Source: an uncultured Gammaproteobacteria bacterium (GTDB taxonomy: Bacteria; Patescibacteriota; Patescibacteriia; Magasanikbacterales; GWA2-37-8). From it: DNA of 63,385 bases. Below the pieces are notes generated by a model that was given only the letters and a program-made list of their open reading frames with translations, made no database searches and was not told the origin of the DNA. The DNA is taken from assembly GCA_964570525.1 (NCBI GenBank), contig CAZMYO010000062.1, positions 1 to 63,385 on the forward strand, read 5' to 3'. Below are positions 335 to 63,227 of the stretch, in pieces (the first letter of the stretch is position 1; each line of letters begins with the position of its first letter). Made by a program: the position numbers and the translations under genes.

Positions 335-444
335 TCTTGGTGGCATGAGCGGCAAGGCAACACCTGTTCCCTTCCCGAACACAGCAGTTAAGCTTGCCAG
401 CGCCCATGATAGCCTTCGGGCAAAAGTAGGCCGCCGCCAGGACA
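335..444 (+). rRNA. rrf: 5S rRNA
   Basis: TCTTGGTGGC...CACCTGTTCCCTTCCCGAACACAGCAGTTAAGC...GTAGGCCGCCGCCAGGAC shows the helix I pairing and the CCGAAC loop C motif. It is followed by ggacaatggtcc plus a T-run. Confidence 0.85.
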
Positions 445-699: not shown

Positions 700-1881
700 A
701 TGTCCACTCCCGAGTCCGCTCTCGAGTCCGTTCCCGAGTCCGTTCCCGAGTCCGCTCCCGAGTCCGCCACCGTGGTCGTTCCTCCGCCGGAACAGGCGGT
801 GGAGGCGAAGGTGCGCTGCACCGCCGGCAACAAGAATCCGGAGGACCAGTGCCAGAACGAGGATGCCACGAACAAGATGTACATCCCCGGGTTCGATTTC
901 CTCTCGAAGAAGCTCGGCGGTCGCCCGATCGAGCTGATCGATCTGAAGGAGCTCGAGGGATTCGCGATCTGCGCCCACTGCCACCAGCTCGTGACGGAGG
1001 CAGCGCGGAAGAGCAACATGAAGATCGAGTACTACAACCTCTCCACCTGCGTGGAGAGGCAGAAGCAGCACCGCGACAGGCGCGCCGCCAAGACGGTCAT
1101 CGACGCGGCGCAGGCGAATCTGTCGGAGCAGCAGAAGCAGCTCTTCAAGGCCAAGGTCGACAAGTACCTGGCCACTCTCCGCAAGAACGCTTCGGCGGAC
1201 CTCCCCCCCCTCGACGCGCTTCCGGAAGTCATCAACTGCGTGTTCGAGAAGTGCGGCCACGCGTTCGCCGGCAAGGACAAGATGTACGTCCCCACCCTCA
1301 CCCGCCTCAACCAGGCGCTCGGCCGCGACGTGGTGGAGGGTGATCTGCCCAACTTCGCCCTGTGCTTCGAGCACGCCCACGCGCTCGAGAAGCGCGACGA
1401 AGAGATGCACCTCCTCGTGGCGTCCATCTGGATGATCGCAAAGAACCGTCCCAAGCGGGAGGCGGCCAAGCAGACCAAGGCCAGGGTCGACGACCTCCTC
1501 GCCGAGTTCGCCGAGCCCATCACCTGGGAGGACGGCCTGCCCGACGCCCCGGTGCCGTGCCGAGGGGAGGGTTGCCCGAACACCATTCCGGCCGGCAAGG
1601 GCAGCGTGTGCGACAGCTGCAAGCGCAAGTGCAAGACCGACGGTTGCAACAATCGCATCCCCAAGATTCACGAATACTGCTTGAAGTGCAAGCCGAAGAG
1701 CCCGCTCGGGAAGAGCCCGCTCGAGAACAAGACCCCCCAGAACTCCACCCTCGCGGATCGGGAGACGAAGCGCCACTGGCGCCAGGGGGAGACCTCCGTG
1801 AAGGGTCCCGTGAAGGGTCCCAGCAACGATCTCTGCCTCCACAACTTCAAGGGCAAGGGCAAGGGCAAGGGCAAGAAGTAG
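700..1881 (+). CDS. Hypothetical Cys/His-rich protein encoded by a high-GC foreign-looking gene (393 aa)
   Basis: AGGAGG lies 7 nt upstream of the ATG. Third codon positions are strongly G/C, which marks this frame as the coding one among six open frames. Features: N-terminal (P)ES(V/A) 12-nt tandem repeats, two related Cys/His modules, a C-terminal CxxC cluster and a KG-repeat tail. I recognise no family. Confidence 0.7.
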   Translation: MSTPESALESVPESVPESAPESATVVVPPPEQAVEAKVRCTAGNKNPEDQCQNEDATNKMYIPGFDFLSKKLGGRPIELIDLKELEGFAICAHCHQLVTEAARKSNMKIEYYNLSTCVERQKQHRDRRAAKTVIDAAQANLSEQQKQLFKAKVDKYLATLRKNASADLPPLDALPEVINCVFEKCGHAFAGKDKMYVPTLTRLNQALGRDVVEGDLPNFALCFEHAHALEKRDEEMHLLVASIWMIAKNRPKREAAKQTKARVDDLLAEFAEPITWEDGLPDAPVPCRGEGCPNTIPAGKGSVCDSCKRKCKTDGCNNRIPKIHEYCLKCKPKSPLGKSPLENKTPQNSTLADRETKRHWRQGETSVKGPVKGPSNDLCLHNFKGKGKGKGKK

Positions 1882-5963: not shown

Positions 5964-7787
5964 ATGTGCGGCATTATCGGTTACATCGGTCAAAAAGAAG
6001 CGTTACCGATCCTCATTAAGGGGCTGCGGCGTTTGGAATACCGCGGTTATGATTCCGCCGGTGTGGCGGTGTTTCATGAAGGAAAAGTGCGGCGCCGGCG
6101 CGCGGTGGGCAAGATTGATATGCTGGCCGAAAAGCTTAAAAAAGAATCGTTTCCGGGTACGGTTGGTATCGGCCATACACGCTGGGCCACGCACGGCGGC
6201 GTAACGGAGGAAAACGCGCATCCGCACACCGATTGCACCGGTAACATTATTGTGGCGCATAACGGCATTATTGAGAACTATCGCGAGCTAAAAAACAATT
6301 TTTTAACCGGGCATGCGTTCCATTCCGAGACCGATACGGAAATTCTGGCCCATCTCATCGAATTTTTTTATCGGGGAGATTTGCGTTTGGCGGTGGAGCG
6401 GGCGCTTAAAGAAGTGCGCGGAACCTATGGTTTGGTTGCGATGCATCTACAGGAACCGCGCAAGCTTATCGCGGCCAGACTCGGGAGCCCCCTAGTAGTC
6501 GGTGTCGGTGACAAAGAGTATTACCTGGCTTCCGACGCTTCTCCAATTTTGGCGTATACGCAGCAGGTTATTTTTTTAGATGATGGAGAAATAGTGGAGT
6601 TAACCGACCACAGTCTTCAAACCTTTAATCTTAAAGACGAAAAAATTAACAAATCCGCCGAGTTTATTGACTGGAATGAGAGTCAGGCAGAAAAGAACGG
6701 CTTCCCCCATTTCATGCTCAAAGAAATTTTTGATCAGCCCACCGTAATTAAAGACGCCATGCGCGGCCGGCTGGTGGAAGAAGACGGGGCGGCGCACTTG
6801 GGTGGACTTAACATGACGGAGCCCGAGATGCGCCGAGTGCAGCGGATTATTTTACTTGCTTGCGGGACTGCCTCGTACGCGGCACTGGTGGGCAAATATG
6901 CTTTTGAACGGCTGGCCGGTATTCCGACCGAGGTGGATGTGGCGAGCGAGTTCCGTTATCGTGACCCGATTATTGATAGCAATACTTTGGTATTTGGTGT
7001 TTCCCAATCGGGAGAAACAGCCGACACCTTGGCGGCTCTGCGCGAAGCCAAACGCAAAGGCGCCTTTGTGCGCGGCATCGTGAATGTGATCGGCTCCACC
7101 ATCGCGCGTGAAACCGACGGCGGCACCTATATTCACGCCGGGCCGGAGCTCGCGGTGGCTTCTTCCAAAGCGTATACCAATATGGTGGCGGTTTTGACAA
7201 TGTATGCTCTCCAGTTCGGCCGGAGTAGCAGGCTTACCGTTGCTACCGGCCAGCGCCTGGTTCGCGCGCTCAACGAGATTCCGGAAAAGATGAAAGTTGT
7301 TTTAACAGAAAGCGATAGGATTAAAAATATTGTTGAGAAACACAAAACTGCCACCAACTTTCTTTTTTTGGGACGCGGCATCAACTACCCGGTAGCTCTC
7401 GAAGGATCGCATAAGCTCAAAGAAATTTCCTATATCCACAGCGAAGCTTATCCGGCCGGCGAGATGAAACACGGAGCTAATGCCCTGCTCTCGCCGCAGT
7501 TTCCGGTTTTAGCCATCATGACCAAGAATCAACTATATGAAAAAATGCGCAGCAATGTTGAAGAGGTTCGAGCTCGCCACGCCCCGCTTATCCTCATCGC
7601 GACGGAGGGCGACACACAGGCCAAAGAGCTCGCCGATGATATTATTTTTGTGCCGCCGACCATGGAATTATTGGAGCCACTCATCAACACGATCCCACTT
7701 CAGCTGTTCGCCTACCATATGGCGGTAGCGCTGGGGAAAGATGTTGACCGGCCGAGAAACTTGGCTAAGAGTGTGACGGTTGAATAA
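5964..7787 (+). CDS. glmS: Glutamine--fructose-6-phosphate aminotransferase
   Basis: MCGIIGY provides the N-terminal nucleophile Cys2. Two SIS domains are present and the C-terminus is KSVTVE. The ORF-track start at 5895 would bury the catalytic Cys. Confidence 0.95.
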   Translation: MCGIIGYIGQKEALPILIKGLRRLEYRGYDSAGVAVFHEGKVRRRRAVGKIDMLAEKLKKESFPGTVGIGHTRWATHGGVTEENAHPHTDCTGNIIVAHNGIIENYRELKNNFLTGHAFHSETDTEILAHLIEFFYRGDLRLAVERALKEVRGTYGLVAMHLQEPRKLIAARLGSPLVVGVGDKEYYLASDASPILAYTQQVIFLDDGEIVELTDHSLQTFNLKDEKINKSAEFIDWNESQAEKNGFPHFMLKEIFDQPTVIKDAMRGRLVEEDGAAHLGGLNMTEPEMRRVQRIILLACGTASYAALVGKYAFERLAGIPTEVDVASEFRYRDPIIDSNTLVFGVSQSGETADTLAALREAKRKGAFVRGIVNVIGSTIARETDGGTYIHAGPELAVASSKAYTNMVAVLTMYALQFGRSSRLTVATGQRLVRALNEIPEKMKVVLTESDRIKNIVEKHKTATNFLFLGRGINYPVALEGSHKLKEISYIHSEAYPAGEMKHGANALLSPQFPVLAIMTKNQLYEKMRSNVEEVRARHAPLILIATEGDTQAKELADDIIFVPPTMELLEPLINTIPLQLFAYHMAVALGKDVDRPRNLAKSVTVE

Positions 7788-8755: not shown

Positions 8756-9085
8756 ATGGAAATACAAAAGACGGTGTGTAAGAGCGAGGCCATAAAAATT
8801 ATTATGGAGGAAGCGGGGAAGGTTGTTGGTAGGGTATATTTGTATATTGTTTTAAATGATTTGCACGCTGAGCCGTATGGATTAATTGAAGATCTATATG
8901 TGGAGGAAGCGGCGCGGGGGCGGGGAGTGGGCACCGAGCTCATAAAAGTGGCAGTGACCGAAGCCAAGGCGCGGGGCTGTTATAAAATAATCGCCACCAG
9001 CCGGCAATCTCGCGAGCAGGTGCATGCGTTGTATGAGAAGAATGGATTTAAAAATTATGGAATAGAGTTCAGAATGGATTTTTAA
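8756..9085 (+). CDS. GNAT-family N-acetyltransferase
   Basis: RGRGVGTELIKVAVTEAKARG is the acetyl-CoA binding motif A. YEKNGF is also present. Confidence 0.75.
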   Translation: MEIQKTVCKSEAIKIIMEEAGKVVGRVYLYIVLNDLHAEPYGLIEDLYVEEAARGRGVGTELIKVAVTEAKARGCYKIIATSRQSREQVHALYEKNGFKNYGIEFRMDF

Positions 9086-9094
9086 AAAGTCGTT

Positions 9095-10303
9095 ATGAAT
9101 CTTTACGAATTTGAGGGAAAAAATTTATTTGCGAAGCATGGGATTACTATTCCGAAAGGCGTGGTAGTTCGTCGTGGGGATGACTTTAGAATTAAGTATC
9201 AAGAATTAGGAGTTAAAGATGTTGTCGTTAAAGCGCAAGTATTATCGGGTAAACGCGGGAAGAATAATGGGATTAGATTTTGTTCAAGTGTTGAAGAGGC
9301 GCAAACAGCTTGTGAGGAGTTGTTTGCGATGAACATTCAGGGGCAATACGTTGCCGCAGTGTTGATTGAGGAGAAATTTGATATTGCCGAGGAACATTAT
9401 TTGTCTATTACCTATGATACCAACAAAAAACAGCCGATGTTGATTTATAGTCGGCGAGGTGGAATGGATATTGAGGACGTGCCGGAGGGCGGTATTGAGA
9501 AGATGTGGTTGGATGTACGAGGGGAAACGTTGGCAGGGTTCGGCGCTCTCGGCAGTGGCCAGTTATCCCCCTCTTACCAAGAGGGGGCTCGGGGGGAGTT
9601 GCCGTTGTTGGCTCAATCCCTATGGAGTTGTTTTTTGGCAGAAGATACTCGTCTCGTCGAAATTAATCCTCTCATCAAGACTACAGATGGCCGGTGGGTA
9701 GCGGCCGACGCCAAGGTTGCGCTCGACGACGACGCCTTTTATCGCCATGAAGAATGGAAAGAGTTGGAACCACGGACGATGCTGGGACGCCTGCCGACCG
9801 AGCGTGAACTTGCCGTGAAAAAAATTGATGAAGGCGAGGCGTATTATCGCGGTACGGCCGGAAAATATATTGAAATGGACGGGGACATCGCGATTTTATT
9901 CTCTGGCGGTGGAGCGAGTATTGCCAATATGGACGCGCTCATTAAAGCCGGTTGCCGGCCGGCAAACTATACGGAGTATTCCGGCAACCCGCCCCGAGAA
10001 AAAGTCGCGCAGTTGGCGAGAATTGTTTTGTCCAAGCCCGGGCTTAAAGGTCTGTGGGTTGCCGGCGGGGTGGCTAACTTTACTAACATCGCCGAAACTT
10101 TTAATGGCATTACGGATGCTTTAGATGAGATAAAACCAAATTATCCGATTGTGGTGCGCCGCGCCGGTCCCTTCGAAGAAGACGGCATGCGACTCATGCG
10201 CGAATGCGCCGAGCGTAATCATCTAAATATGAAATTATTCGGCAAAGAGACTTCAATGAGCGAAACGGCGAAAATTTTGGCGGAGATGGTAAATAAACAA
10301 TAA
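9095..10303 (+). CDS. Succinyl-CoA synthetase beta-subunit-like ATP-grasp protein (SucC / citryl-CoA synthetase large-subunit-like)
   Basis: The MNLYEFEGKNLFAKHGI N-terminus and the length match SucC. It contains a GC hairpin insert at 9564-9597. Confidence 0.8.
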   Translation: MNLYEFEGKNLFAKHGITIPKGVVVRRGDDFRIKYQELGVKDVVVKAQVLSGKRGKNNGIRFCSSVEEAQTACEELFAMNIQGQYVAAVLIEEKFDIAEEHYLSITYDTNKKQPMLIYSRRGGMDIEDVPEGGIEKMWLDVRGETLAGFGALGSGQLSPSYQEGARGELPLLAQSLWSCFLAEDTRLVEINPLIKTTDGRWVAADAKVALDDDAFYRHEEWKELEPRTMLGRLPTERELAVKKIDEGEAYYRGTAGKYIEMDGDIAILFSGGGASIANMDALIKAGCRPANYTEYSGNPPREKVAQLARIVLSKPGLKGLWVAGGVANFTNIAETFNGITDALDEIKPNYPIVVRRAGPFEEDGMRLMRECAERNHLNMKLFGKETSMSETAKILAEMVNKQ

Positions 10304-30776: not shown

Positions 30777-30799
30777 GCGTCCCGACTTAGTCGGGACGC
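30777..30799. repeat. CCCGAC-TTAG-GTCGGG hairpin (REP family 1)
   Basis: gcgtcccgacttagtcgggacgc lies between two minus-strand genes. Confidence 0.65.
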
Positions 30800-45459: not shown

Positions 45460-47331
45460 TTATCCCCTTATCTCTACTCCGGGACCAGTGGAAACTTTAT
45501 TAGATGGCCCTAAAATCTCTGCGATTTGGTCTTGTTCAAGCGTCTCTTTCTCGAGCAGCGCCTGTACCATCTTTTCTAGTTTATCACGATTAGACTCAAT
45601 TGTCTTCTTGGCTACTTTTTCGGCCTCGGCGATAAGACTCCTAATCTCTTGATCAATAATCTCGGCGGTCTTATCGCTGTAGTCGCGCGTTTCGTGAATT
45701 TCCCTGCCCAAGAATACCAGCTCTTCATGCTCGCCAAAGGTGCGCGGGCCAAGTGTCGTGCTCATGCCGTAGCGCGTCACCATATCGCGGGCGATTTTGG
45801 TGGCGTTTTTGAGGTCGCTCGAAGGGCCGGTAGACACGTTATCATCCCCAAAAATCATTTTCTCTACCACGTATCCACCGAGCGCCATGGCGAGCTCATC
45901 TTTAAATTGAGCGAGAGTATGATAATGCTTGTCTTCGGTCGGCATTTTTAGCGTATAGCCGCCGGCCTGCCCGCGCGAGATAATTGAAACCTTGCGCACC
46001 GGATCGGAATTGGGTAAGAGGTAACCGACAATCGCGTGTCCGGCTTCGTGGTAGGCGGTTGTTTTTTTATCGAGAACGCTCATAACGCGGCTCTTGCGTT
46101 CGGGCCCGAGGAGCACCTTCTCAATGCTCTCAAGAATTTCTTTTTCACCGATTATATTTTGCTCGCGGCGCACCGCTAGAATCGCCGCCTCATTCATTAA
46201 GTTGGCGAGATCAGCCCCCGAGAATCCGGGCGTGCGCTCGGCGATTTTGCGGATGCTCACTTCCGGAGCCAAAGGTTTACCTTTGGCGTAAATGCCCAAA
46301 ATCTCTTCTCTGTCTTTTATGTCTGGCAGGTCAATCACGACCCGGCGATCAAAGCGGCCGGGGCGAAGCAGAGCTGGATCCAAAACATCGGGGCGATTGG
46401 TGGCGGCCATAACAATAACGCCGTTGTTGGGTTCAAAGCCGTCCATTTCTACTAAAATCTGATTAAGGGTTTGTTCGCGTTCGTCATGTCCGCCGCCAAG
46501 CCCGGCGCCGCGGCGACGACCAACCGCGTCAATTTCGTCGATAAAAACAATGGCCGGGGCCGCTTTCTTGGCTTTAGCAAATAAATCACGCACGCGCGAA
46601 GCTCCCACCCCCACAAACATCTCCACGAATTCGGAACCGCTCATATGGAAAAATGGCACGTTGGCTTCGCCCGCGACCGCTTTCGCCAAAAGCGTTTTTC
46701 CGGTGCCGGGGGCGCCCATCAAGAGCACGCCCTTGGGGACCTTTGCCCCCATTTGAGTAAACTTTTTTTGATCGCGTAAAAATTCCACCACCTCCGCCAG
46801 TTCTTCTTTGGCTTCCTTGGCGCCGGCGACATCGGCGAATGTTTTCTGATCCTTGTCTTCCGGCTTCACCTGGCGCGGATTGCTCTGGCCAAAACCCATG
46901 GCGCGGTTGTTCGCCCCCTGGATACCGCGGGTCATGAAAAAGAAGAAGACGATAATGATGATAAGAGGGATGAGTCCCGGAAGAATATTCCCCAGCCAGA
47001 ACTTCCAGGAGTTCTCGTCTTTTACTTCCACCTGCAGGTCTTGGCGCGCCGCGTCGGTTACCCCGTAATTTTTTAAAATGTCGCCAAACGATTCCTGCGC
47101 TTCTTTTCTCACCTCCTGGGCGCGAGCTTTTTCATCCTTTAAGGCAACATTAAGAGTGTCTCCTTGCACCACTATCTTTTTAACGGCTCCGGCGTTAATC
47201 TCTTCCACTAGTTTACCAACGCCAATCACCTCGGGCTTCGAGCTGGCTCCGCCGCGCCATAAACTCAACGCTCCCGCCACAACCAGCAGGACCGAAAAAA
47301 TAATCAAAAAATTTTTCAAGAAATTACGCAT
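45460..47331 (-). CDS. ftsH: ATP-dependent zinc metalloprotease FtsH
   Basis: [18 protein letters not shown], the SRH region and the HEAGHA zinc site. Confidence 0.95.
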
Positions 47332-47416
47332 AGTAATAAAGTCTTAAATGTATTTTACATACTACCTTATTATTGAAAAAAAATCAAGCCTAAACGGCAA
47401 AGTTGAAGCGCCTACC

Positions 47417-47445
47417 AAAAAATCCCGATTTAATCGGGATTTTTT
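47417..47445. terminator. Bidirectional terminator
   Basis: aaaaaatcccgat-tta-atcgggatttttt. Confidence 0.65.
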
Positions 47446-47495
47446 AGAAATGTCCCGATAGCAGCGGCGCGTGTCGGGACGGCACGAAAGGTTGG

Positions 47496-48836
47496 TTAGA
47501 GCTTGCGAATACGGAGCCAAATCGGCTCGGTCGGCTTGCGCGTAAAGCCAATCTGCGGAGTAGGGCTAAAGTGGCGATCAGCGAGTTCAAACCGGACACG
47601 CTTTGCTGTTTCGGCAACGAGGAGCGCCATCTCCGTCTCGGCAAATTCCTTGCCAATACAGATACGCGGCCCGCTGCCAAAAGGCATGTGCGCCAGTTTA
47701 TGCTTCACCGAACCATCTAGAAAACGCTCGGGGTTAAACTCCAGAGGCTTGTCCCACCACCGTTCGTCTGTTCCCAAAAGAAAGATGGGGATGAGAACGA
47801 TCGATCGTTTGGGGATACGGTAGCCATCCAAGGTGTCTTCTGCCACTACCTCCCTACCCATGAGCCACGCCGTTGGAAACAAACGCATCGTCTCCTTAAC
47901 CGTGGCGCTAATGAGGCGCATCTCCCGATAGCTTTTGCTCGCGCGCGCTTCCTTCCCCAGTCGCTCCATCCACTCCGGACGGCGCGCCAGTAAGTACCAA
48001 AGCCAGGTGAGCGCGATGCCAGTCGTTTCGTGTCCGGCCAGCATGAACGTCTTGATGTTGTCGAGCACCGCTTCGTCCGTCATCCCAGCCTGGAGGAGAG
48101 TAGAAATGAGATTTGGGCGTTGCTCTCCGTGGCCGAGCTTAACTTTCTCGGCGACGATAAGCCGACGGCTAACAGTATTAAGCGTTCGTTTGGCGGCCGC
48201 CAAACTGCGGTTGGCCGAGGTCGGCAACCAACGCAAGGTGAAGGGGTCGTGCATTCCCGGAAAAATGGCCTCGAGTCCACGATCGGTGGCTTCACCAATC
48301 TGTTTGAGCTCGTCGCTAAAGTTAACACCTAAAATGCATTCCCCGAGTATTTGGAGCGTGAATCGCTCCATCGCCTCGCTCATGTTGAGGTTTTCCCCGC
48401 GCTCGGCCAGCCGCTCCCATTCTGTTACCGTAGCGTTGACGCACCGCTTCATTATCACGGCCGTTTCCTGGAGGGAACTGCCCCGAAACTGGGGATTCAT
48501 TGTATCGCGCATGCTTTTCCAGGCCGGGCCGCGTGAAGTCAAGACTCCCCAGCCAACAAGCTCGGCCAGTCGCTTCATACCGAGGGCAATTGGCTGGTAC
48601 TTGTCGCGCTCGGGTTCTTTTACCAGAACCCGGTGTACGAGCTCCGGGTTAAGGAGCAGAAACGCCGGTGTAAACAGGTTAAAGGCCACCAAATTGGCCG
48701 TGCGGCCAAAGCTCGATGCCAGCTCTCGAAGGTATCCTTCCGGATCATTGCGAAAACGGAAAAAACCCATCATTTTAGCCAACCCCCGCGGGCCCGGCGC
48801 GACATTTTTCTTATTTCCAAGACTTGGGTGATTCAT
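47496..48836 (-). CDS. Cytochrome P450
   Basis: FGSGPRICIG is the heme Cys loop, AGHETTG is the I-helix motif, and ETMRLFP is ExxR. aaggag lies 7 nt before ATG-48836. GC is elevated (36/60 in 47581-47640). Confidence 0.85.
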   Translation of the reverse strand: MNHPSLGNKKNVAPGPRGLAKMMGFFRFRNDPEGYLRELASSFGRTANLVAFNLFTPAFLLLNPELVHRVLVKEPERDKYQPIALGMKRLAELVGWGVLTSRGPAWKSMRDTMNPQFRGSSLQETAVIMKRCVNATVTEWERLAERGENLNMSEAMERFTLQILGECILGVNFSDELKQIGEATDRGLEAIFPGMHDPFTLRWLPTSANRSLAAAKRTLNTVSRRLIVAEKVKLGHGEQRPNLISTLLQAGMTDEAVLDNIKTFMLAGHETTGIALTWLWYLLARRPEWMERLGKEARASKSYREMRLISATVKETMRLFPTAWLMGREVVAEDTLDGYRIPKRSIVLIPIFLLGTDERWWDKPLEFNPERFLDGSVKHKLAHMPFGSGPRICIGKEFAETEMALLVAETAKRVRFELADRHFSPTPQIGFTRKPTEPIWLRIRKL

Positions 48837-49314
48837 TGGCCGCTCCTTTTTTTGAGAAAACCTTTTCCTCGCAGCCAACTATACACTATAATCCTTAAAA
48901 TTAGCAACTGTTAGAACTAAAATCCTACCACGCCATTCACTATATTTTTTCTTCAAACTTTGGATATGTTTACTCTCGCCACAACCAATACTCCCATATC
49001 ACCTGCTCATGTATTTTTGTGGTATTGCCATGACTTAGTAGTCCAAGATATGATTGAAAACTCTCCTCACTCACTGATGATCTAATGTTCCGCATCATTT
49101 GCTGTTTTGTTTTACTATCCGACTTGAGTATGCCACAAAAATATAGATTCCCATATTTTCATCGCTCGTTCGGAAGTGAAAAAAATTTTTTCACTTCTCT
49201 CGCTCGCTTGAAAATGATTCGCCCGCCCCAGTTTCCCAGGGCGGGCGTTTTGTTGCGATGGCGAGCCGACCGCGTGCCGCCTAAAGCTTCAGCGGTGGCG
49301 CAAGGATCCAAGCG

Positions 49315-49333
49315 ATCCCGACTAAGTCAGGAT
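49315..49333. repeat. Degenerate, inverted-orientation copy of the CCCGAC hairpin
   Basis: atcccgactaagtcaggat lies 18 nt downstream of the stop of the high-GC ORF. Confidence 0.45.
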
Positions 49334-49350
49334 GCCCAAGTACCCTAGGG

Positions 49351-49944
49351 CTACTCGCTGACGAAGCCGACGAGGCAGTGCCGACCCCAGTCACCCTCGA
49401 CCGTGCGGCAGAACAGGTTGCGCCAGTCGGAGTAGGAGCGGCCGCTGAGGAAGAGCACGCTGCCCTGCTGCCGGGAGCCGAGCGCCACGATGGGGTTCTC
49501 GCGCTTCTCGCCGGGCAGCTTGATGGCGATGCCCATCGTGTGGCGAGTCTCGATCGTCTTGGGGCGACCGTTCGCCTTGCCCCACGCGCGGACCTCGTCG
49601 TCCCCCCACTCGCGGTCGAACCCGACCAGGTCGACCTTCGTCGGCTTGTCGAGCCCCACCCGCTCCTTGGCGAACTGGCGGATGAGATAGCCGAGATCGC
49701 GCTCGTTGTCGAACTTGCCGAGGCGGACGGCCTCGGCAAAGTCCGCCGCCGAGTAGGCCGGGACAATGATCGTCTTCACCACCCTGCCGACGAGCGGCGG
49801 CGGAGAGGCGGGCTGCTGGCGCACGATCTCCTCGACCGTGAGCTTGCGCTCGCCGCGGAACACCGCACGTGCGATCTCCGAACCACCCACGATATTGAGG
49901 AGTGCTTCGGTCTCGCCGAGGGTCCAGTTATTGTACTTTCCCAT
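49351..49944 (-). CDS. Hypothetical protein encoded by a very high-GC foreign-looking gene (197 aa)
   Basis: aaAGGAGacccg precedes the ATG (M42 of the ORF-track ORF). Codons are GC3-saturated (45/60 GC in 49561-49620). All six frames are open. I recognise no family. Confidence 0.65.
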   Translation of the reverse strand: MGKYNNWTLGETEALLNIVGGSEIARAVFRGERKLTVEEIVRQQPASPPPLVGRVVKTIIVPAYSAADFAEAVRLGKFDNERDLGYLIRQFAKERVGLDKPTKVDLVGFDREWGDDEVRAWGKANGRPKTIETRHTMGIAIKLPGEKRENPIVALGSRQQGSVLFLSGRSYSDWRNLFCRTVEGDWGRHCLVGFVSE

Positions 49945-50204
49945 CGGGTCTCCTTTCAGGCTGAAAGCCCAAAAAGCCTTTTGCCCCTGCCCGGGGCCCA
50001 GGTCTCTTGTCTCATGAGAAGAGCTTTTGTACCACTTGCAAACAAATGAAACTAAAGCTTTTCTCAATAATTTTGCTTGATTTATTGGCTAATTATACAA
50101 AGAGCTAACGAATTATAATAGCACAAAATAAGAGTTTTGTCGACCGTGTACAGTATCCCCGCACCAGAAGGGTACGGGGATTTCCAAATATTTAATACTT
50201 GTGT

Positions 50205-51398
50205 TTATTCAGCTGCTTTTGTATCCTTGGCCGAAGGTTCTTCGGCGTTTGCCTTTTCGGCGGAAGCTTCCTTCTTTTCGGCCGCCGCCTTGTTGGCAGC
50301 CGTGCGTCCGCTTTTGCCTTTAACACCGGCGAGCTTCAAACCCAAACGATGTTCGGCCGGCTCGAGCGAGACGATTTCAAAGTCCAATTCTTGCCCAATT
50401 TTAAATTTATCGGCCATATTGTTTATGGGCTGATCGGAAAGCTCGGAGATGTGAGCGAGACCGTGAATGTTTTTATCGAGACCAATCATCAAACCAAACA
50501 GTTCGATCTTTAAAATTTTCCCCTTAACCGTATCGCCAACCTTGAATTTTTCTTTTACCGACTTCCAAGGGTCTTCGATGGTACGCTTGATGGAGAGATA
50601 AATTTTGGAGTGATCAAGTTGGATAACTTGCGCCTTAACCATGTCGCCTATTTTTAGAACATCTTTAGGATGATCAATTCTTTGCCAGGCGATTTCGGAA
50701 ATGTGCACCAATCCTTCCAGGCCCTGGCCAAACTTAATAAAGGCTCCAAACGACGTGAGGGCGCTGATCTCGCCTTCCACAACATCACCAATTTTATAGG
50801 CTTCAAGCACGGCCTTCTGGGAATCTTCCCACACCGCGCGCTCTGATACGATTAGCTTGTCTTCTTTATCATTAACGTCAATTACCTTTACCTCGAGCTC
50901 CTTGCCCACCATTTCTCTAAGTTTTTCAAAGATGCGATTTTTGTCGCCCCCCGCTACGCGCGGATAATTATCCGGGCTAAGTTGCGATACCGGCAAAAAT
51001 CCGTTCAAGGCTTCTACCTGCATCATCAGGCCGCCTTTGTTGGCCGCGACTATCTTGGCCTTGATGGTTAACCCTTCTTTCATCCACTTTCTCATGTTGT
51101 CCCAGGCTCGTTTGTAGCCGGCGATACGGAACGACAATTCCATTTCCCCATTTTCGTTTTCAAGCTCCATTACCGTAGCCTCCACCTCGTCGCCAACCTT
51201 CAAACCGGAATACTCGCGCGACTCGGCGAACATCTCTTGGCCGCGCACAACGCCGGTAGTCATTCCTTCAATATCAATATGCACCTCGCCGCGATCAACG
51301 GAGATTACTTTTCCTTTCACCACGTCGCCGGCCGCCGGCACATCCATGGCATGCGCTTGGAAGAGTGATTTAAAATCTTGTGTCTTAGTGTCTGTCAT
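50205..51398 (-). CDS. rpsA: 30S ribosomal protein S1 (four S1 domains)
   Basis: Repeated G.VV.G.V......G..V S1 motifs. The tail is rich in Lys, Ala and Glu. Confidence 0.9.
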   Translation of the reverse strand: MTDTKTQDFKSLFQAHAMDVPAAGDVVKGKVISVDRGEVHIDIEGMTTGVVRGQEMFAESREYSGLKVGDEVEATVMELENENGEMELSFRIAGYKRAWDNMRKWMKEGLTIKAKIVAANKGGLMMQVEALNGFLPVSQLSPDNYPRVAGGDKNRIFEKLREMVGKELEVKVIDVNDKEDKLIVSERAVWEDSQKAVLEAYKIGDVVEGEISALTSFGAFIKFGQGLEGLVHISEIAWQRIDHPKDVLKIGDMVKAQVIQLDHSKIYLSIKRTIEDPWKSVKEKFKVGDTVKGKILKIELFGLMIGLDKNIHGLAHISELSDQPINNMADKFKIGQELDFEIVSLEPAEHRLGLKLAGVKGKSGRTAANKAAAEKKEASAEKANAEEPSAKDTKAAE

Positions 51399-51410: not shown

Positions 51411-51429
51411 ATCCCGACTTAGTCGGGAT
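51411..51429. repeat. CCCGAC-TTAG-GTCGGG hairpin in the rpsA leader
   Basis: atcccgacttagtcgggat. A degenerate second copy lies at 51505-51523. Confidence 0.65.
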
Positions 51430-52330: not shown

Positions 52331-52351
52331 AATCCCGACTTAGTCGGGATT
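52331..52351. repeat. CCCGAC-TTAG-GTCGGG hairpin
   Basis: aatcccgacttagtcgggatt. Confidence 0.65.
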
Positions 52352-61422: not shown

Positions 61423-61496
61423 TTGCGGGGGTGGGATTTGAACCCACGACCTGGTGGTTATGAGCCACCCGAGCTGCCAGGCTGCTCTACCCCGCT
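61423..61496 (-). tRNA. tRNA-Met (CAU), initiator-like
   Basis: A hand-folded cloverleaf: AGCGGGG/CCCCGCA acceptor stem, CTCATAA anticodon loop, GTGGG-TTCAAAT-CCCAC T arm. It is close to E. coli tRNA-fMet and has a 1:72 A-A mismatch. CCA is not encoded. Confidence 0.85.
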
Positions 61497-61500
61497 GTGA

Positions 61501-61577
61501 TAGTCTAAAGTCTTTAAAGTCGTAAAGTCGAAAGTCGTGACTTTATAGACTTTATGACTTTACGGACTTTCGACTTC
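61501..61577. repeat. AAGTC-word imperfect hairpin between two tRNA genes
   Basis: tctaaagtctttaaagtcgtaaagtcgaaagtc faces gactttatagactttatgactttacggactttcgac. Confidence 0.7.
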
Positions 61578-61580
61578 GGG

Positions 61581-61654
61581 AGCGGTAGACCGGATTCGAA
61601 CCGGCGACCTTCTCCTTGGCAAGGAGACGTTCTAGCCAACTGAACTACTACCGC
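61581..61654 (-). tRNA. tRNA-Gly (GCC)
   Basis: A hand-folded cloverleaf: GCGGTAG/CTACCGC acceptor stem, TTGCCAA anticodon loop, GCCGG-TTCGAAT-CCGGT T arm. CCA is not encoded. Confidence 0.9.
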
Positions 61655-61681: not shown

Positions 61682-61768
61682 GTTCTAGCCAATCCCGATT
61701 TTGCTATGGCGCAAAATCGAGGATCCTCGATCCCGACTTAGTCGGGATCGGGACTGAACTACTGCCGC
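61682..61768 (-). pseudogene. Duplicated 5' half of tRNA-Gly interrupted in the D-loop by a 61-nt REP composite
   Basis: GCGGCAGTAGTTCAG, then the insert at 61693-61753, then TTGGCTAGAAC. This differs from the first 26 nt of the adjacent tRNA-Gly at one position. No anticodon or T arm follows. Confidence 0.65.
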
Positions 61769-63155: not shown

Positions 63156-63227
63156 GCGGGTATCATATAACGGCTATTATGGAGGTTTTCCAAACCTTAC
63201 ACGCGGGTTCGACTCCCGCTACCCGCT
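63156..63227 (+). tRNA. tRNA-Gly (UCC)
   Basis: A hand-folded cloverleaf: GCGGGTA/TACCCGC acceptor stem, TTTCCAA anticodon loop, GCGGG-TTCGACT-CCCGC T arm. CCA is not encoded. Confidence 0.8.

Follow-up and report, generated by a model that had tools for sequence, protein, structure and literature searches.

We describe here an open reading frame (ORF) of 197 codons on the minus strand of a 63,385-nucleotide contig from an uncultured Patescibacteriota bacterium (CAZMYO010000062.1; this whole stretch is referred to below as the window), which is very probably the variable protein gene of a Patescibacteria-type diversity-generating retroelement (DGR), orphaned by deletion of its mutating machinery. 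DGRs are known as a system, and those restricted to Patescibacteria form a known cellular clade ('clade 2'; Roux et al., 2021, PMC8144416); the target family to which this gene belongs is new and unannotated. The ORF is strikingly GC-rich for its surroundings, and a first-pass annotation had taken it for an orphan forming a solitary cassette. On our reading an apparently alien orphan gene becomes interpretable, as what targeted hypermutation has left behind in an ultra-small bacterium, and a GC island need not mean foreign DNA. The coordinates of all features of the window are collected in Table 1.

The ORF is neither an orphan nor solitary, since it has 25 to 63 homologues, all on Patescibacteria-type contigs, and is the survivor of a three-gene DGR cassette whose reverse transcriptase (RT) gene persists as a stub downstream of it. 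A set of 5.8 billion proteins contained 25 homologues at 48-81% identity, of which 15 were full-length at 48-65%, and 63 cluster representatives were obtained at 50% clustering. The genome matches were metagenome-assembled genomes (MAGs) of Ca. Uhrbacteria, Ca. Magasanikbacteria and Ca. Buchananbacteria, and a scan of viral contigs for the target family found none. Judged by this homology, the protein is a member of an unannotated family of the Patescibacteria, or candidate phyla radiation (CPR), within which it is the sole member of its 90%-identity cluster and is listed on one contig.

Related loci, numbered here with the prefix L, include seven cassettes in which the target gene ends in a variable repeat (VR) paired with a downstream template repeat (TR), namely L005, L008, L009, L014, L033, L035 and L037. 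The order in an intact cassette is target gene, TR, Avd and RT, with the bAvd and RVT_1 genes adjoining the TR. In L005 the target is followed by a bAvd (PF22296) gene and then an RVT_1 (PF00078) gene, and the final 121 nt of the gene are repeated, at 87.6% identity, 360 nt downstream; of the 15 differences between the two copies, 14 are at adenines of the downstream one, the exception lying within a terminal segment that resembles the initiation of mutagenic homing (IMH) sequence and its template counterpart (IMH*). Summed over the seven cassettes, the VR (3' ~120 nt) differs from the TR at 113 TR adenines and at 14 positions elsewhere. An RT gene is present in L005, L009, L010, L020, L027 and L037, and the RT match of L035 is split over two frames. 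The RTs of the seven cassettes form one clade, with 56-70% identity; the RT is 31% identical to Brt of Bordetella phage BPP-1 (E = 1e-33), and in the intact RT the RVT_1 domain covers residues 30-234. Since 3' VR/TR pairs with adenine-specific differences occur together with a DGR-type RT, the family can be identified as DGR variable proteins, and the window protein shares 48-66% identity, along its whole length, with the targets of the intact cassettes. The orthologous loci therefore resemble the mtd-TR-avd-brt system of BPP-1 and the Patescibacteria clade 2 DGRs (PMC8144416) in having a 3' VR, an adenine-differing TR, bAvd and a DGR-type RT, as well as a non-identical IMH/IMH* pair, an inverted repeat past the VR and AAC-rich variable codons. 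The window locus, unlike a working DGR, is a relic that has lost its TR, its Avd gene and the catalytic domain of its RT by deletion.

This loss can be followed by alignment with L005, with which the window is collinear at the nucleotide level over the leader, gene and post-VR region (50055..49336 = L005 9891-10597), the terminator region (49272..49211 = L005 10637-10697) and the RT 3' end (49056..48974 = L005 12398-12480). Absent from the window is the equivalent of L005 10730-12343 (~1.6 kb), which holds the TR, Avd and RT residues 1-246, and the deletion junction lies at ~49106-49110. The RT stub (tblastn E = 1e-11) is identical by BLASTP at 24 of 46 residues, and positive at 36 of 46, to residues 247-292 of the L005 RT and has the same stop; beyond this C-terminal stub tblastn finds no RT or Avd in the window, and no second VR copy or TR is present in its 63 kb. 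The comparison shows that a deletion of ~1.6 kb took out the TR, Avd and the catalytic region of the RT, and therefore that no diversification in cis would be possible.

The VR left behind in the window still carries a record of its history. It differs from the TRs of its relatives at 13-16 of 24-29 TR adenines (about 55%), whereas at other positions 5-20 of roughly 75-95 differ (about 13%), a pattern which fits past adenine mutagenesis. It also contains a 6-nt insertion (Ser-Tyr) that is found in no other TR or VR of the family. The VR ends in the window in the VR-type sequence GGCTTCGTCAGCGAGTAG / CAGCGAGTAG, where the TR-type end in relatives is CAGCTAGT or CAGCCAGT; the VR-type G is conserved, with CAGCGAG in place of the CAGCTAG or CAGCCAG of the TR. 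Immediately past this IMH-like end stands a nested hairpin, for which hairpins of different sequence are found at the same position in L005, L008, L009, L014, L035 and L037, and together the two elements have a putative homing function in the window.

The inner part of the post-VR hairpin was earlier described as a degenerate copy of a host repetitive extragenic palindromic (REP) hairpin, and indeed it has a single mismatch to the host palindrome ATCCCGACTTAGTCGGGAT. This 19-nt palindrome occurs at six intergenic sites of the window (<= 3 mismatches) against 0.02 expected, in the manner of REP palindromes, and its flanks are not conserved. Unlike the other REP-like copies, the one considered here occupies the DGR post-VR hairpin position, in which the hairpins of relatives have other sequences. 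The two stem-loops proposed beyond the stop codon are likewise real. One is the 12-bp terminator hairpin of the target gene, which is homologous to L005 10637-10697 and also present in L037 and L038, and the other is an A/T hairpin. Further downstream is a conserved 37-nt segment with 83-84% identity to L005 10693-10729 and L009 865-900, and TG-n-TATACT or GATATA motifs are found at the equivalent place in L035, L037 and L038. The segment is a putative promoter, which in the intact cassettes would be that of the TR.

In the intact relatives, going by established DGR biology and the sequence signatures described above, a transcript of the TR, ~360 nt downstream of the target, would be copied into cDNA by the RT-Avd pair, with misincorporation opposite adenines. 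This cDNA would replace the last ~120 nt of the target gene, with the IMH and the downstream hairpin marking the boundary of the replaced stretch, and the outcome would be the recoding of about a dozen AAC-type codons on the last β-strands of a C-type-lectin-like binding domain. The window gene appears to retain its own promoter, a leader whose last hairpin would occlude the Shine-Dalgarno (SD) sequence, the IMH-like end, the post-VR hairpin and the terminator, and we infer that it has been kept intact and is probably expressed, with its VR frozen.

The same features are also consistent with a target that is still active, in which case RT-Avd and a TR that fits this VR may be supplied in trans by another DGR of the genome, lying beyond the visible 63 kb, and the local deletion would have taken only a redundant copy. 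We regard this as possible though unlikely. Remote targets are an acknowledged DGR mode (PMC8144416), and L020 has two VR-like copies for one RT. The intact ORF, IMH-like end, post-VR hairpin and leader of the window gene, and its undiminished GC content at third codon positions (GC3) of 0.91, would all fit continued use. The L001 target keeps a GC3 of 0.87 with no local DGR within +/-10 kb; that of L036 also has 0.87, on a contig that ends at the stop codon of the target, so that the downstream side is not visible. However, there is no RT, Avd or TR in the 63 kb of the window, and a replacement from a TR of standard length would erase the 6-nt insertion that is unique to this VR. Moreover, Patescibacteria genomes are small and usually hold few DGRs, which counts against a second element.

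This prospect of a DGR in trans is one of several points that weigh against an orphaned and frozen DGR target. None of the components that define a DGR is functional in the window, and the assignment rests on orthology to intact cassettes. The protein has no match in Pfam, PHROGs, NCBIfam or the PDB sequences, nor in a profile search against PDB. A Foldseek search with its predicted structure gave no match with E < 1e-3, and the solved DGR variable proteins were absent from the top matches. Finally, loss of a DGR explains neither the cause of the GC3 saturation nor the matching composition of an unrelated ORF near the start of the window (700-1881, island 1). It is with these points taken into account that we hold the orphaned DGR target to be the very probable reading.

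Some of the related cassettes have features of their own. A second VR-like copy (85% over 221 nt; 6001-6555 and 9612-9832) lies past the RT in the L020 cassette, which suggests two targets for one DGR. The split RT match of L035 (9633-10504), where the cassette is otherwise intact and the called gene has only 215 aa, may represent either a decaying frameshifted RT or a sequencing error. Directly after the DGR cassette of L005 (12490-14348) are a helix-turn-helix gene and a serine-recombinase (resolvase) gene, a possible route of cassette mobility.

Turning to the protein itself, alignment of the family reveals an N-terminal module rich in invariant residues (M-KY--WT-GE-EALLN--GG---AR), followed by a Pro-rich linker and a domain of ~150 aa. 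The last 40 residues have the framework G-VL-L-G-S-WR-L-R--V---W-R--LVGF(L/V)SE, in which variable positions lie between conserved ones. No signal peptide or membrane segment is apparent in the sequence of the target protein. The 45-aa N-terminal module also precedes at least six different C-terminal domains in other proteins, and ten proteins having only this module in common gave no Pfam match. Among the DGR targets that have their own TR are two other types of C-terminal domain (L010, L032) and the divergent variants of L020 and L027. These proteins define a modular variable-protein family, in which a common N-terminal module and leader are combined with interchangeable variable C-terminal domains.

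AlphaFold gave a model with a pLDDT of 85 for the whole protein, and with a pLDDT of 90.5 and a pTM of 0.86 for the C-terminal domain, whose last three to four strands correspond to the VR. The best PDB match of this domain in Foldseek was the Bd2740 tip (8OKS; E = 0.05, probability 0.97, TM 0.44/0.55), and the next compact matches were all C-type lectin folds (NKR-P1B, BDCA2, mincle and LOX-1; TM 0.36-0.46, E >= 0.05). The full-length model, and comparison with viral structures, gave only weak C-type-lectin-like matches. Bd2740 is described as a C-type lectin variant, with Mtd, a DGR protein, as its only trimer-matching homologue (PMC10769870). The C-terminal domain likely adopts a C-type lectin fold, although the assignment is weak, none of these matches being significant. 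It resembles the DGR proteins of that fold (Mtd, TvpA, TaqVP, AvpA) in being a small α/β domain with variable residues on its C-terminal strands, but differs from them in that it is preceded by a two-helix module of 45 aa, in that its best structural match has an E of only 0.05, and in that it gives no FGE-sulfatase or DUF1566 signal, with none of 16 family members matching PF03781 or PF07603 (Pfam, E <= 10).

A second feature that sets the family apart from described DGRs is a conserved structured leader on the target. The good SD reported ahead of the start codon is indeed there, as GAAAGGAG at 49956-49950, 5 nt upstream of the ATG (reading GAAAGGAGACCCG-ATG), and the ~130 nt that precede the ATG show conservation throughout the family, even in members whose C-terminal domain is of another type. 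In RNAalifold the middle hairpin has a 5-bp stem with compensatory changes at every pair and a conserved GGGYA loop, and the last hairpin has a 10-bp stem joining CUUUUU to the GAAAGG of the SD. For these two 3' hairpins, 97.5% of cells are paired across 16 loci and 10 of 15 pairs show compensatory changes on both sides; none of 500 shuffles matched the leader, and slid controls dropped to 36-62% paired. The long 5' hairpin, P0, has a folding energy of -19 to -34 kcal/mol in 14 loci of differing sequence. In most loci its 3' strand has an alternative pairing with a downstream repeat (P1) that is much weaker than P0, and a two-state P0/P1 switch can be offered as a suggestion. The window leader RNA adopts the same fold (z = -3.05).

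A covariance model of the leader gives one match per locus, always directly upstream of the target family, and no other in the remainder of the window or across 270 kb of related loci. In Rfam 15 no family matched 48900-50250 at E <= 1 beyond chance level, and in the whole window only rRNA and tRNA were matched, elsewhere. The pairing of a U-rich CUUUUU with the GAAAGG of the ribosome-binding site is like that of SD-sequestering leaders (fourU-type RNA thermometers, riboswitch expression platforms), and would be consistent with regulation of target gene translation. Ahead of this pairing come a conserved hairpin whose loop is invariant and a long 5' hairpin. Unlike the known leaders of this kind, that of the window has no Rfam match and is linked exclusively to one DGR-target superfamily. 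No such leader is described for DGRs in PMC5758913, PMC8144416, PMC4891356, PMC10769870 or Rfam, and as far as could be checked a conserved structured leader on a DGR target is an undescribed feature. It is a candidate for a new cis-regulatory RNA and is strongly supported by covariation.

The composition of the gene was what had first drawn attention to it, and here the first-pass annotation largely stands. Its hand count of 45 G+C among the 60 nt of 49561-49620 is exactly reproduced, and the jump in GC and codon usage is real: the ORF has a GC of 0.668 (GC1 0.65, GC2 0.44) and a GC3 of 0.909, which is 6.8 SD above the 0.517 +/- 0.057 (range 0.37-0.65) of 49 other ORFs of the window, in a comparison set of 51 non-overlapping ORFs >= 150 aa that includes both islands. 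The jump was, however, said to be bounded almost exactly by the start and stop codons, and this is not so, as the GC-rich block extends from ~50000 to ~49220 and takes in 55 nt of the 5' leader and 130 nt beyond the stop. Among the 51 ORFs only island 1 shares the high GC3 of the target gene (island 2). The claim that the two islands share one codon dialect is borne out by relative synonymous codon usage (RSCU), which correlates at r = 0.90 between 700-1881 and 49351-49944 and at 0.41-0.43 between either island and the host. Third positions are likewise similar, with A.02, T.07, G.40 and C.51 in island 1 and A.02, T.07, G.38 and C.53 in island 2.

Island 1 (plus strand, GC3 0.91) lies directly after the 23S-5S rRNA genes and encodes a Lys- and Cys-rich protein of 393 aa, with PES repeats towards its N-terminus and KG repeats towards its C-terminus. 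The protein has no homologue among the 5.8 billion proteins and no Pfam match. Around it we found no VR/TR, IMH or leader motif, no repeat in common with island 2 and no RT nearby.

The GC-rich character of the target is shared by its family. In the seven cassettes the target has a GC of 0.51-0.68 and a GC3 of 0.56-0.92, whereas the adjoining RT has a GC of 0.31-0.44 and a GC3 of 0.31-0.46. The homologues lie in genomes of 35-52% GC and all are GC-rich, while their neighbouring RT and Avd genes are AT-rich, as is the RT stub of the window. As far as could be checked, a target that is GC3-saturated across a family while the RT and Avd of the same cassette are AT-rich is undescribed. Outside the VR, the window gene differs from its homologues at 35-45% of four-fold sites, with 639 G<->C differences against 666 of all G/C<->A/T kinds; as G<->C changes are thus about as frequent as all G/C<->A/T changes together, these sites have turned over while staying G/C.

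These data bear directly on the proposal that both islands were captured, as solitary cassettes, from a common high-GC donor or by a common route. Such an origin would account for a GC3 of 0.91 against 0.52 in the host, for the codon usage shared with island 1, for the position of the locus as an insertion relative to relatives and for the neighbouring cytochrome P450 gene, which is also above host GC. Nevertheless we consider it very improbable. The homologues found are confined to Patescibacteria-type contigs, with none viral, the AT-rich RT beside each GC-rich target has diverged along with it, and the divergence at four-fold sites implies a composition held through a long divergence, which makes a recent import unlikely. 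In addition, the choice between C- and G-ending codons in the pooled targets and island 1 follows that of the host (r = 0.81), including a preference for CTC over CTG. Homologues at ordinary GC, which would tell against a foreign gene, also exist, in that the decayed members L017 and L018 have a host-like GC3 of 0.42-0.45. The high GC is, from these comparisons, a family-wide property of the target gene and not the mark of a foreign donor.

A mis-joining in assembly, by which a high-GC fragment of another organism would have been inserted into a Patescibacteria contig, is hardly credible at all. The GC boundaries are sharp, and many family members are on very short contigs, as would be expected where hypervariable repeats break assemblies. 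Yet this GC-rich gene is met again, in AT-richer surroundings, in independent NCBI, ENA, JGI and Logan assemblies, the host's own palindrome has a copy inside the GC-rich block, and the block is flanked by an AT-rich RT stub homologous to cassette RTs.

Where, then, does the composition come from? Among homologues with a TR-type 3' end, on contigs without RT or Avd, GC3 is 0.68 in L015, 0.45 in L017 and 0.42 in L018, and it is 0.62 in L016, which has a degenerate VR. On these few cases, GC richness seems to track linkage to a DGR. Translational selection, or an expression-linked dialect, was rejected as a cause, the ribosomal-protein genes of L001 and L005 having a GC3 of 0.46-0.67. GC3 saturation as a general property of DGRs was also rejected, on two low-GC phage DGRs only, in which the GC3 of target and RT is 0.38 and 0.36 (Bacillus phage BalMu-1) or 0.53 and 0.53 (Butyrivibrio phage), unlike the Patescibacteria cassettes with their GC3-saturated targets and AT-rich RT and Avd. 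Polarisation of third-position changes by parsimony, as between equilibrium and amelioration, was limited by too few A/T sites and by the bias of parsimony at skewed composition.

A more speculative proposal, which we hold to be quite improbable, is that the retroelement itself, or selection on DGR targets, generates or keeps up the extreme GC3 of the target, which declines after linkage is lost (from L015 to L016 and on to L017 and L018), that ORFans like island 1 are unrecognised products of the same process, and that the leader is a new riboswitch- or thermosensor-like control on the timing of variable protein production. Possible routes to such a GC3 would be GC-biased conversion of the entire transcription unit, mediated by cDNA or associated with recombination, or an avoidance of A/T on both strands. 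The sharp GC contrast inside a 2.5-kb cassette is kept in seven cassettes and is explained neither by expression level nor by a foreign donor nor by general DGR biology. If it is tied to DGR activity, it would provide a marker, readable from sequence, for active versus dead targets and would point to a localised GC-biasing force in bacteria.

The three homologues with a TR-type end (L015 207-848, L017 259-849 and L018 586-1173) terminate in the IMH*-like CAGCTAGTCTC together with a hairpin and a run of T, and in L015 every variable codon is Asn. They could be either relics in which VR and TR have collapsed into one or gene copies that bear the template.

Table 1. Positions of the features discussed, numbered on the whole 63,385-nt window
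Feature	Position	Strand	Description
23S rRNA gene 3' end and 5S rRNA gene	1-185 and 336-442		window start
FtsH gene	45460-47331		flank of accessory insert
Accessory insert	47332..50204	-	2.87 kb; leader, target gene, RT stub, cytochrome P450 gene
Cytochrome P450 gene	47496-48878	-	PF00067, E = 5e-71; GC 0.56, GC3 0.65; immediately downstream of RT stub
RT stub	48973..49110	-	last 46 codons and stop; catalytic RVT_1 missing; 240 nt downstream of target stop
Conserved segment	49106..49142	-	between target terminator and TR in intact cassettes; extended -10-like TGTGGCATACT
A/T hairpin	49172..49200	-	GAAGTGAAAAAATTTTTTTCACTTC; within 68-nt stretch 49143-49210 that L005 lacks
Intrinsic-terminator hairpin of target gene	49220..49247	-	12 bp; CGCCCGCCCTGGGAAACTGGGGCGGGCG then AATCATTTTC; terminator scan
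Post-VR nested hairpin	49303..49346	-	counterpart of DGR target inverted repeat; inner 49315-49333 is host REP-like palindrome
Target gene	49351..49944	-	N-terminal module aa 1-45 (49810-49944), Pro-rich linker, C-type-lectin-like domain aa 50-197
IMH-like VR 3' end	49351-49374	-	CTCGTCGGCTTCGTCAGCGAGTAG
VR	49353..49480	-	aligns to TRs of L005, L008, L009, L014
Structured leader	49945..50066	-	three elements: P0 hairpin and two 3' hairpins
Leader SD hairpin	49976-49952	-	CUUUUU pairs with GAAAGG of SD
Leader middle hairpin	49997-49983	-	conserved loop GGGCA; outer CCU/AGG pairs 50002-49977
Leader hairpin P0	50066-50015	-	long 5' hairpin
Second extended -10	~50090-50097	-	TGTATAAT
Promoter-like site	50115..50143	-	TCGACA, 17 nt, TG-TATTAT; 10/12 consensus matches; match to consensus only
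S1 gene	50205-51398		other flank of accessory insert
Palindrome ATCCCGACTTAGTCGGGAT sites	30779-30797, 47422-47440, 49315-49333, 51411-51429, 52332-52350, 61730-61748		
Three tRNA genes	61423-61654; 63156-63227		near other window end

The leader, target gene and RT stub lie with the P450 gene in an insert between the S1 and FtsH genes. The window S1 protein is 84-86% identical to its best matches, the named ones of which are Magasanikbacteria. In L040 and L041, whose S1 genes are 71-79% identical to that of the window at the nucleotide level, FtsH follows directly after S1, the spacer measuring 134 nt in one and about 500 nt in the other. With the two genes adjacent in these two relatives, the closest found through S1, and 2.87 kb apart in the window, the target locus is by this comparison accessory. 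No meaningful direct repeat or target-site duplication was found around the 2.87-kb insert, and no mobility gene was found with it. Other members of the family have different neighbourhoods, the gene standing between RuvX and RecO in L001, after RuvX in L036 and beside UvrC in L035. One gene upstream of the orphan target of L001, on a Uhrbacteria contig, is an ORF of 145 aa (8910-9347) with a GC of 0.63, a GC3 of 0.73 and no Pfam match, another small gene of moderately high GC close to a DGR target.

To our knowledge, a cytochrome P450 seems an unusual gene for a Patescibacterium. That of the window may be a separate acquisition, and may now be transcribed from the orphaned promoter-like segment left behind by the DGR.

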